Below are positions 48,552 through 50,160 of a stretch of DNA of 64,000 nt, in pieces; the stretch's first letter is position 1; each line of letters opens with the position of its first letter. The stretch comes from Escherichia coli (GTDB taxonomy: Bacteria; Pseudomonadota; Gammaproteobacteria; Enterobacterales; Enterobacteriaceae): the NCBI RefSeq assembly GCF_044324875.1, contig NZ_CP172185.1; one strand, given 5' to 3'. The position numbers and the translations under genes are program-made. Under the pieces are notes generated by a model. That model made no database searches. It was not told where the DNA came from and worked only from the letters and a program-made list of their open reading frames with translations.

Positions 48552-48869
48552 TCAGAAATGATCTGATAGTTTGTTATCTGTATCTTCCAGCACCCTGTTG
48601 ATATCCCGGGAGCCATGTACGATACGTTCGATACGAACTTCAGTATCCAGAACTCTGAACAGCAGAAGATAACGACCATACGAACAACCTCTGATCCCGG
48701 GTCCCAGCTCTCTCCTTTCTCTGTAGAGTTCTGGAGATTCTGCGATTAACAGACATTGCTGGTAAAGTTCTTCAGTAAAACTGATTGCGCGGACAGGATT
48801 ATCCTGAGCGATCCAGTCACCAATGGCCTCAAGATCGTTTTCTGCTAATGGTGAGACAGTCAGTTTCAT
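48552..48869 (-). CDS. parE: Type II toxin, ParE/RelE superfamily
   Basis: 105 aa; stop/start overlap with the upstream antitoxin gene; …RERRELGPGIRGCSYGRYLLLFRVLDTEVRIERIVHGSRD…. Confidence 0.75.
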   Translation of the reverse strand: MKLTVSPLAENDLEAIGDWIAQDNPVRAISFTEELYQQCLLIAESPELYRERRELGPGIRGCSYGRYLLLFRVLDTEVRIERIVHGSRDINRVLEDTDNKLSDHF

Positions 48870-49129
48870 ATTGACTGTTCACCTGCTGCTATCTTTTTGT
48901 ATTTGTTTGTCAGTCTCCCGAACACCTCTTCAGCACTTTTACTTTCACCGCTGTTAATACCTGCGGTAACGGCGTTACGAAGTGATTCAAGCTTTATCTT
49001 CTGTTCCTGCTCTTCCAGGGCCCGAAGTCCGGCGCGAATAACTTCACTTGTATTGTTATATCGTCCACTTTCTATCTGTTCGCGGATAAACGTTTCAAAG
49101 TAAGGGCTGAGGGATACACTGGTAGGCAT
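48866..49129 (-). CDS. parD: Type II antitoxin, ParD-like (ribbon-helix-helix)
   Basis: 87 aa, MPTSVSLSPYFETFIREQIESGRYNNTSEVIRAGLRALEEQEQ…. Confidence 0.75.
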   Translation of the reverse strand: MPTSVSLSPYFETFIREQIESGRYNNTSEVIRAGLRALEEQEQKIKLESLRNAVTAGINSGESKSAEEVFGRLTNKYKKIAAGEQSI

Positions 49130-49197
49130 GATGATTTCTCACTGATTAAGTACTATCAGTTAATAATAATTAATATTAGTGAGTTGTAAAATCCCCT

Positions 49198-50064
49198 TTA
49201 TGCCTGGCTGCTTTTGCTTACGATGTCCGCCCGGAATTCTGGATAACGTTTCGCCAGAACAGCATTCAGCTTCTCCACCAGTTCCGGGTGTTTAAACGTG
49301 ATATGCGCGGAGCCCTTCCTGAAGTATCTGATGCTGAACATCTCATCCTCATAGCACGCTTCACCCTGAACAGAACGGATGTGTTCATCCAGACGAATGA
49401 GGATATTGTCCCTGCAATCGGGTATGGGTTTACCACTGAACAGATACAGTATCCTTTCCAGGTCGGCAAGCCGCACGGCCTGCGGACCATGGTTCAGACC
49501 AAATCCCCACCAGTCCCATTTCACCAGGTTGTTGAGGATAATCTTGCTGCCGAATTTACAGGGTGACCCGCTGTTTTGCGTCCGGCTCAGCCCCCTGAAG
49601 AGGTTGATGACGCCCCGTTCAGCCATTTCATCCCTGTTACGGTGCAGTTGTTCAGACGTGCTCAGGATATTCGCTTCGCTGATTTCCGGGAAATTATCCT
49701 CCTCCAGTGAACGGTACCATTCATCACGCGCCTGTGCATCCATCAGACTCAGCATCCCGGAGCGTTGCATCAGGTCACGCCAGATTTCCCGGTCAAGATT
49801 CCGGGTGATGGCTTTCATTGCGGTTTCCGGTTTTTCCATCAGCCAGCAGCCACAGCGAAAATCCTGTTTCACGGCCCAGTCCCGGGCCGTTTTACCTCCG
49901 ATGCTTTCTGTCATTACTGAGATTTCTGCCAGTTGCCGGATAAGCCTTTCGGTTTGTTGCAGTGCTTCATTCCGTACCGTCACAACGTGCCGGATACTGG
50001 TTGAGCAGATAACGTCCGTATGTCCGTTAAGCGTTTCCGGACGGGAGACTGTGATATCAGACAT
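49198..50064 (-). CDS. Hypothetical protein (about 288 aa) upstream of parDE
   Basis: Start taken at MSDITVSRPE…; the longer ORF-track start lies inside the IS2 terminal repeat. No assignable motif. Confidence 0.5.
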   Translation of the reverse strand: MSDITVSRPETLNGHTDVICSTSIRHVVTVRNEALQQTERLIRQLAEISVMTESIGGKTARDWAVKQDFRCGCWLMEKPETAMKAITRNLDREIWRDLMQRSGMLSLMDAQARDEWYRSLEEDNFPEISEANILSTSEQLHRNRDEMAERGVINLFRGLSRTQNSGSPCKFGSKIILNNLVKWDWWGFGLNHGPQAVRLADLERILYLFSGKPIPDCRDNILIRLDEHIRSVQGEACYEDEMFSIRYFRKGSAHITFKHPELVEKLNAVLAKRYPEFRADIVSKSSQA

Positions 50065-50160
50065 AACCGATATTCCTTTTTGCAGATAAATGAAAACGCC
50101 AGCCCTGTTCAGGCTAGACTGGCCCCCTGAATCTCCAGACAACCAGTATCACTTAAATAA

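Follow-up and report, generated by a model that had tools for sequence, protein, structure and literature searches.

The genomic segment analysed here, a 64-kb stretch of Escherichia coli DNA referred to below as the window, carries a 288-codon gene of the DUF4942 family between a copy of the insertion sequence (IS) element IS2 and a parD-parE toxin-antitoxin (TA) pair, with DUF4942, parD and parE all on the minus strand. The best overall explanation, to which we would assign a probability of about 0.75, is that these genes form the tail of a genomic island, that parDE is an add-on with a promoter of its own, and that IS2 cuts the DUF4942 gene off from read-through transcription. In other words, to judge from the sequence, the most likely effect of IS2, together with an IS21-family element, is to reduce or eliminate expression of DUF4942, not to activate it. 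The features on which this explanation relies are the following.

48552..48869, minus strand: parE toxin gene, 105 amino acids (aa) (PF05016 ParE_toxin, E 1.6e-19)
48866..49129, minus strand: parD antitoxin gene, 87 aa, ribbon-helix-helix type (PF03693, E 2.6e-18; TIGR02606)
49138-49146 and 49175-49183: inverted repeats CTCACTGAT/ATTAGTGAG, overlapping the predicted parDE promoter
49149-49154: AGTACT palindrome in the DUF4942-parD gap, at the predicted promoter
49190..49163, minus strand: predicted parDE promoter TTTACA-16-TATTAT, a 10/12 sigma-70-like site (consensus scan)
ATG 50064 to stop 49198, minus strand: DUF4942 gene, 288 codons (six-frame list of open reading frames (ORFs) and raw sequence)
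50078..50073, minus strand: Shine-Dalgarno sequence AAGGAA, 8 nt 5' of the DUF4942 ATG (direct sequence reading)
50099..50117, minus strand: remnant hairpin and T-run (native form GACGCCAGCCTGAACAGGGCTGGCGTT+TTCATTT), a 7-pair terminator-like site
50110..50114: left copy of the CAGGC target duplication, adjoining IS2
50115..51445, plus strand: IS2 (IS3 family), 1331 bp, intact orfA/orfB (terminal repeat match; rve/HTH_21 in orfB)
51446..51450: right copy of the CAGGC target duplication, directly after IS2

The element is about 1.3 kb long and has terminal inverted repeats, orfA/orfB with a DDE (rve) domain and a 5-bp target duplication; in its exact length of 1331 bp, its terminal repeats, its two genes and its duplication it is like known simple insertions of IS2. 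Alignment to the IS-free allele of E. coli LH50-c (NZ_CP100500; 99.4% identical; referred to as L001) revealed a clean simple insertion. The initial annotation had described a second IS2 copy inserted simply, with a CAGGC duplication, and ending 50 bp upstream of the start codon of the gene. All of this was borne out, as CAGGC is present on both sides, the comparison with L001 is clean, another IS2 end is found in the window at 16648-16676, and IS2 begins at 50115 with the ATG at 50064. The transposase genes are on the plus strand, so it is the left terminal inverted repeat (IRL) that points toward DUF4942, 50 bp from the ATG. Because the DUF4942 ORF is intact and near-identical to IS-free alleles, these comparisons indicate a recent insertion. 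It is also strain-specific; the exact IS2-DUF4942 junction is absent from all 5426 of the complete E. coli genomes searched. The other IS2 copy in the window, placed at 15346-16676 on the minus strand, has one terminal-repeat mismatch (CCCCATG for CCCCCTG); of this copy just the end at 16648-16676 was observed, and its start assumes a full-length 1331-bp element.

The insertion point lies inside the 5' arm of a conserved terminator-like hairpin, which is located about 30 nt upstream of the DUF4942 ATG. In its native form, within the 96-bp spacer between the DUF957 and DUF4942 genes, this hairpin reads GACGCCAGCCTGAACAGGGCTGGCGTT followed by TTCATTTAT and comprises 11 pairs and a T-run, with a folding energy of -20.8 kcal/mol (z -4.6). 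Five loci have kept it although their genes share no more than 80-85% identity, and 92.7% of cells are paired. After the insertion, the T-run is retained and the 5' arm of the remnant is supplied partly by the CAGGC duplication and the IS2 end. At 50099-50135 part of the hairpin is rebuilt from the end of IS2 (GGCCAGTCTA) and the duplicated target, with GCCAGUCU pairing with AGGGCUGGC. That a terminator-like stem with a T-run was rebuilt may be due to chance.

Promoters were called by scanning for the sigma-70 consensus, scored out of 12, with a relaxed scan accepting sites of at least 8/12. Upstream of DUF4942 the consensus scan found no site of at least 9/12, in either the native spacer or the IS2 end, and the relaxed scan of the native and IS2-carrying upstream regions returned only 8/12 matches, none of them convincing. 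The T-run and the ATG are separated by no more than about 30 nt, and DUF4942 has no recognisable promoter of its own. The simplest account of its native expression is partial read-through: some of the transcription coming from cbeA-cbtA-DUF5983-DUF957 upstream would probably pass the hairpin and reach the gene. In the strain studied here two elements would stand in the way of such read-through, the IS21-family one in cbtA and IS2. We favour reduced or lost expression over activation because the IRL faces DUF4942 without an outward sigma-70-like site and because the hybrid hairpin with its T-run precedes the start codon. The proposal made initially, that IS2 displaced the native promoter of this gene, can thus be retained only in part: the gene does appear to be cut off from upstream transcription, but no recognisable promoter was hit, the hairpin being split instead.

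Among the other explanations, the one that fares best, though we consider it unlikely, is that IS2 is transcriptionally neutral, the hairpin ending the upstream operon and DUF4942 being transcribed from an unrecognised promoter or start that belongs to it and lies in the hairpin or 3' of it. The hairpin indeed has full terminator features, the 30 nt from it to the ATG are well conserved, and the DUF4942 ORF is intact. However, the roughly 30 nt from the T-run to the ATG are too short for a standard promoter plus leader, and there is no consensus promoter match. It is improbable that IS2 instead provides a new outward or hybrid promoter driving DUF4942 and possibly parDE. IS elements, IS2 included, are able to activate neighbouring genes, the ATG here is merely 50 bp from IS2, and there is one weak outward 8/12 site, TTAAGA-17-GATACT, at 50173..50145. 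However, the outward -35 that IS2 is known to have lies in the right terminal inverted repeat (IRR), whereas it is the IRL that faces the gene; no such outward site reached 9/12; and a hairpin with a T-run, formed partly by the IS2 terminus, still stands between IS2 and the ATG.

The gene at 49198-50064 precedes the ParD/ParE pair, taken in the direction of transcription, on the same strand with a 68-bp gap (49130-49197), as the initial annotation had it, and the strand, which was not given there, is the minus strand. It had also been labelled unknown and hypothetical, with a call for a domain search; this label no longer applies, as Pfam returns a full-length match to PF13708 (DUF4942) at 200.8 bits against a cut-off of 25 (E 2.1e-59), covering profile positions 1-190 of 190. 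In the IS-free allele the protein is of equal length, differs by 3 amino acids and carries the RefSeq name DUF4942 domain-containing protein. The motif AAAAGG(A/G)A at the Shine-Dalgarno sequence is kept in the five loci. A longer, TTG-started ORF of 314 aa extends into IS2 and is unsupported by RefSeq annotation or homologues. The family amounts to 1980 clusters at 50% identity, nearly all of them stand-alone proteins of 260-290 aa, and its distant members align from about residue 13-20 to residue 276; the invariant residues W95, G151, D201, H254 and N267 are all present. Neither NCBIfam nor PADLOC assigned the 288-aa protein to a family, and no second domain was detected by Pfam (E up to 1) in 70 stand-alone relatives. 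The 288-aa ORF is a full-length member of the DUF4942 family, within its length class of about 280 aa, and not an orphan.

The AlphaFold model of the protein (predicted local distance difference test score, pLDDT, 87.7) is helical in its N-terminal two-thirds, followed by a small alpha/beta domain, with six short strands in the C-terminal third. Searching the PDB with the single sequence, and also with a profile of 70 members, returned no sequence relatives at E up to 10, and a Foldseek search of viral models (BFVD) returned only DUF4942 family members, one of which is named Type I restriction enzyme. A minority of homologues, 468 aa long, have an additional C-terminal amino-methyltransferase (MTS) domain of about 190 aa, which bears LEPSAGxG and NPPF motifs; a further DNA-recognition domain is not recognisable in them. 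phrog_6263 and a BFVD match likewise speak for such fusions. Such fusions, together with database names such as 'restriction methylase' and 'Methyltransferase domain' (including those in PMC11541004 Supplementary Table 1) and the name 'DNA methyltransferase' given to phrog_6263, might be taken to mean that the 288-aa protein itself works as a DNA methyltransferase or as a subunit of a restriction-modification system. We regard this as very improbable. Pfam and NCBIfam detect no methyltransferase domain in the protein, and none is present in the 70 stand-alone relatives; the LEPSAGxG/NPPF motifs are confined to the added C-terminal domain of the 468-aa homologues; the order of predicted secondary structure elements, read as that order alone, is not Rossmann-like; and no methyltransferase occurs among the fold matches. 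The combination expected of such an enzyme, namely an S-adenosylmethionine-binding motif I, a catalytic motif IV and a Rossmann-type domain, was not found in the 288-aa protein. Since the protein contains no methyltransferase domain, its sequence gives no justification for the name 'restriction methylase'. A further link between the family and DNA methylation genes comes from an IncP-like metagenomic contig (L006, 3738-6434), where a 40%-identical DUF4942 homologue directly follows korA-incC-korB and lies two genes before a C5 DNA methyltransferase.

As for parDE, the two genes overlap by 4 bp with the antitoxin first, which is the arrangement of a ParDE pair, and ParD scores 98.3 bits with TIGR02606, for which the cut-off is 46.2. 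The sequence relatives in the PDB are 6x0a_A (E 1.5e-12) and 3kxe_A for ParE and 7b22_A and 3kxe_C for ParD. With Caulobacter ParDE1 (PDB 3KXE) and the chimeric Mesorhizobium ParDE (6X0A), the cassette in the window shares a ribbon-helix-helix ParD, ParE domains, overlapping genes with the antitoxin first and a promoter-proximal inverted repeat, although it is only distantly similar to the solved examples (E 1e-12 to 1e-3). The protein models of PADLOC-DB matched none of DUF4942, ParD and ParE. By these features, the pair appears to be a standard, self-contained type II ParDE toxin-antitoxin cassette. TTTACA-16-TATTAT is the only 10/12 sigma-70-like site in 48300-50400, and L001 has an identical one. 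The predicted promoter is kept in the 89%-identical parDE cassette of another E. coli locus (L002), and the core TTATTAACTGATAGTAA of its region is kept in Salmonella and Pantoea parDE cassettes. This suggests that parDE has an independent promoter within the 68-bp gap, and the repeats at 49138..49190 are a probable candidate for the ParD operator. If parDE is transcribed from this predicted, ParD-autoregulated promoter, it would be indifferent to IS2, and most probably it is unaffected by the insertion. The initial idea that IS2 might also have displaced the promoter of parDE is therefore probably wrong, given a 10/12 sigma-70-like site inside the DUF4942-parD gap, over inverted repeats.

To see how closely the two are linked, we counted, in the 5426 complete E. 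coli genomes, the DUF4942 genes detectable by megablast and the parDE cassettes of the type found in the window. DUF4942 occupies 4768 places in 3159 genomes and parDE 505 places in 472 genomes, 465 genomes having both; about nine-tenths of the DUF4942 genes are without parDE, which follows DUF4942 in about one-tenth of the island copies. The closest relatives of parDE outside E. coli (71-75% nucleotide identity) are located beside xerC on a Salmonella IncF plasmid and beside an aldose epimerase gene on Pantoea plasmids, with no DUF4942 neighbour in either case. Conversely, neither ParDE nor any other TA neighbour was found at the distant DUF4942 homologues on IncP-like plasmid, Tn7-like and phage-like contigs. 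The similarity between parDE-linked and unlinked loci stops near the DUF4942 stop codon, which fits with the cassette having been joined there. Because DUF4942 is far commoner and related parDE cassettes occur without it, parDE looks like an optional add-on and not a partner of DUF4942.

Several points weigh against the explanation that we prefer. Covariation analysis of the five loci revealed no compensatory changes in the hairpin, so that there is conservation only and selection for the structure is unproven. Promoters and terminators were called by consensus matching alone, and a non-consensus or alternative-sigma promoter for DUF4942 could be present in the 50 bp to the left of IS2. Finally, nearly every E. 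coli copy of parDE adjoins DUF4942; a single ancestral acquisition at an island end would account for this linkage, but there may be some interaction as well.

Least probable of all is that DUF4942, ParD and ParE make up one three-gene system or operon, with DUF4942 as a regulator, chaperone or third component and IS2 rewiring all three: three-component ParE systems do exist, such as PaaR-PaaA-ParE of E. coli O157:H7, which likewise has a third co-oriented gene beside a ParE-type pair, but in the window that gene is upstream, is separated from the TA pair by a promoter-like site, has no regulator domain (no helix-turn-helix or ribbon-helix-helix domain by Pfam or NCBIfam, nor a corresponding fold match) and occurs mostly without a TA pair, strict co-inheritance being contradicted both by the 4768 versus 505 places and by the parDE relatives without DUF4942.

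The wider setting is consistent with an island tail. In five annotated IS-free E. coli loci (L001-L005) the order and orientation of the module are constant, namely DUF932, KlcA-type antirestriction, RadC/JAB, DUF987, CbeA, CbtA, DUF5983, DUF957 and DUF4942, with DUF4942 always last; what comes 3' of it is parDE, a gene for an EAL-domain protein or the end of the island itself. Between 42001 and 58976 the window and L001 are collinear apart from two insertions, IS2 and the IS21-family element. Upstream of IS2 it contains the following.

51497..51700, minus strand: DUF957 gene, the native 5' neighbour of DUF4942; 100% identical to L001 10762-10965 (RefSeq DUF957)
51709..52197, minus strand: DUF5983 (YeeW-like) gene (PF25638, PF19419; L001 annotation)
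52328..54281, minus strand: IS21-family element, 1954 bp, inside cbtA (IstB_IS21, E 8e-112, and rve; blastn of the window against L001)

Pfam gave no match for the DUF957 gene product. The IS21-family element (IstA 53173-54195, IstB 52394-53176) has a 5-bp target duplication and interrupts the sequence at L001 11588-11592; it breaks the cbtA toxin gene and leaves the cbeA antitoxin side. In earlier descriptions of such islands the DUF4942 gene is L0010 of O157:H7 and orf56 of the Shigella SRL island, both of which come after homologues of YeeV/CbtA, YeeW and DUF957 (PMC6980539). On the explanation that we prefer, the segment is the distal tail of an integrase-associated E. coli genomic island struck by two IS elements.

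Elsewhere, IS2 or an IS3-family element occupies other points of the module in other E. coli strains: IS2 lies within cbtA in L002 and within DUF5983 in L022, and in L021 an IS3 family transposase (known from annotation only) separates a truncated DUF4942 gene from a hypothetical gene, likewise truncated, that stands where DUF957 would be. It looks as though the module accumulates IS insertions. The apparent shared orientation of IS2 in the modules of other strains was discarded as search bias, as pieces had been joined only when on the same strand. On the other side of parE, 458 bp past it, is an intact P4-type tyrosine integrase (46828-48093), and past the integrase are a tetratricopeptide repeat (TPR) protein and a 500-aa EptA-like phosphoethanolamine transferase (Sulfatase and EptA_B_N), at 43668-46602; this stretch looks like a second island abutting the first. 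Despite the integrase, ARAGORN found no tRNA gene in the window, and no Rfam RNA families were found in 46000-53000. Within the 458 bp of non-coding DNA that separate parE from the integrase gene lies an 8-bp perfect inverted repeat (TGATTCGA ... TCGAATCA; 48450-48495, seen by eye), which could be a terminator, an island end or an att-related site.

One lead on what DUF4942 itself might do comes from plasmids. The family is listed as enriched in plasmid leading regions, among the first genes after oriT (PMC11541004). On conjugative plasmids its member is typically the ORF that comes first behind oriT. Homologues are encoded by at least 5000 plasmids; of the 5000 counted, 4553 (91%) are conjugative; their YgfB-type proteins are about 34-36% identical to the window protein. 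On the IncI1 plasmid pJIE174 (L017) the homologue is located between ardA and oriT-nikA, and on an IncL/M plasmid it follows a JAB/RadC gene. The pJIE174 homologue lies about 650 bp from nikA/oriT, and ahead of it is a stretch of about 580 bp of non-coding DNA (6384-6961), which would be a place to seek a single-strand (Frpo-type) promoter. Unlike these plasmid relatives, the gene in the window is chromosomal, has parDE behind it and is severed by IS2 from the genes upstream. The leading-region anti-defence islands (Samuel et al. 2024, PMC11541004) have KlcA/ArdB, DUF932/YubP-like, DUF905, DUF5983, DUF4942 and TA genes in common with the module, whereas the module is in a chromosomal island with no relaxase nearby. 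A recent preprint has proposed that related E. coli islands (TAI islands) carry oriTs. A search of the literature for DUF4942, PF13708 and ydiA returned passing annotations only and no functional study in the searchable literature.

With low confidence, DUF4942 may be viewed as an accessory protein that mobile elements use in establishment or in connection with anti-defence. At a similarly low level of confidence, its body may be a nucleic-acid or target-recognition module, employed at an early stage of mobile DNA establishment and non-catalytic when stand-alone, because the gene is located on conjugative plasmids and the methyltransferase fusions contain no other DNA-recognition domain. One may speculate further, although we find it rather unlikely, that DUF4942 is an establishment or anti-defence effector recognising incoming DNA and that the tail, from KlcA to DUF4942-parDE, is the leading end of an oriT-bearing mobilisable island. 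If that were true, the hairpin would gate DUF4942 expression and the insertion of IS2 would have knocked out the gene with which the element enters first. Still more remote is the idea that a ParE-like C-terminal topology in the DUF4942 model reflects an interaction with ParD.

Hundreds of E. coli genomes have the DUF4942-parD-parE arrangement in their annotation, and the finding, while real, is an ordinary one: the island is decaying and has taken many IS hits, among them the IS2 copy next to DUF4942. The IS2-split allele and its IS-free twins (LH50-c and AR_0085, NZ_CP029741) nevertheless make up a natural pair for the question of DUF4942 transcription. DUF4942 is among the largest uncharacterised families enriched at the start of plasmid leading regions (PMC11541004), and it combines a confidently predicted fold with the lack of any solved relative, which makes a functional study of any member worthwhile. 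The residual value of the finding thus lies solely in the question of what role the DUF4942 family plays.
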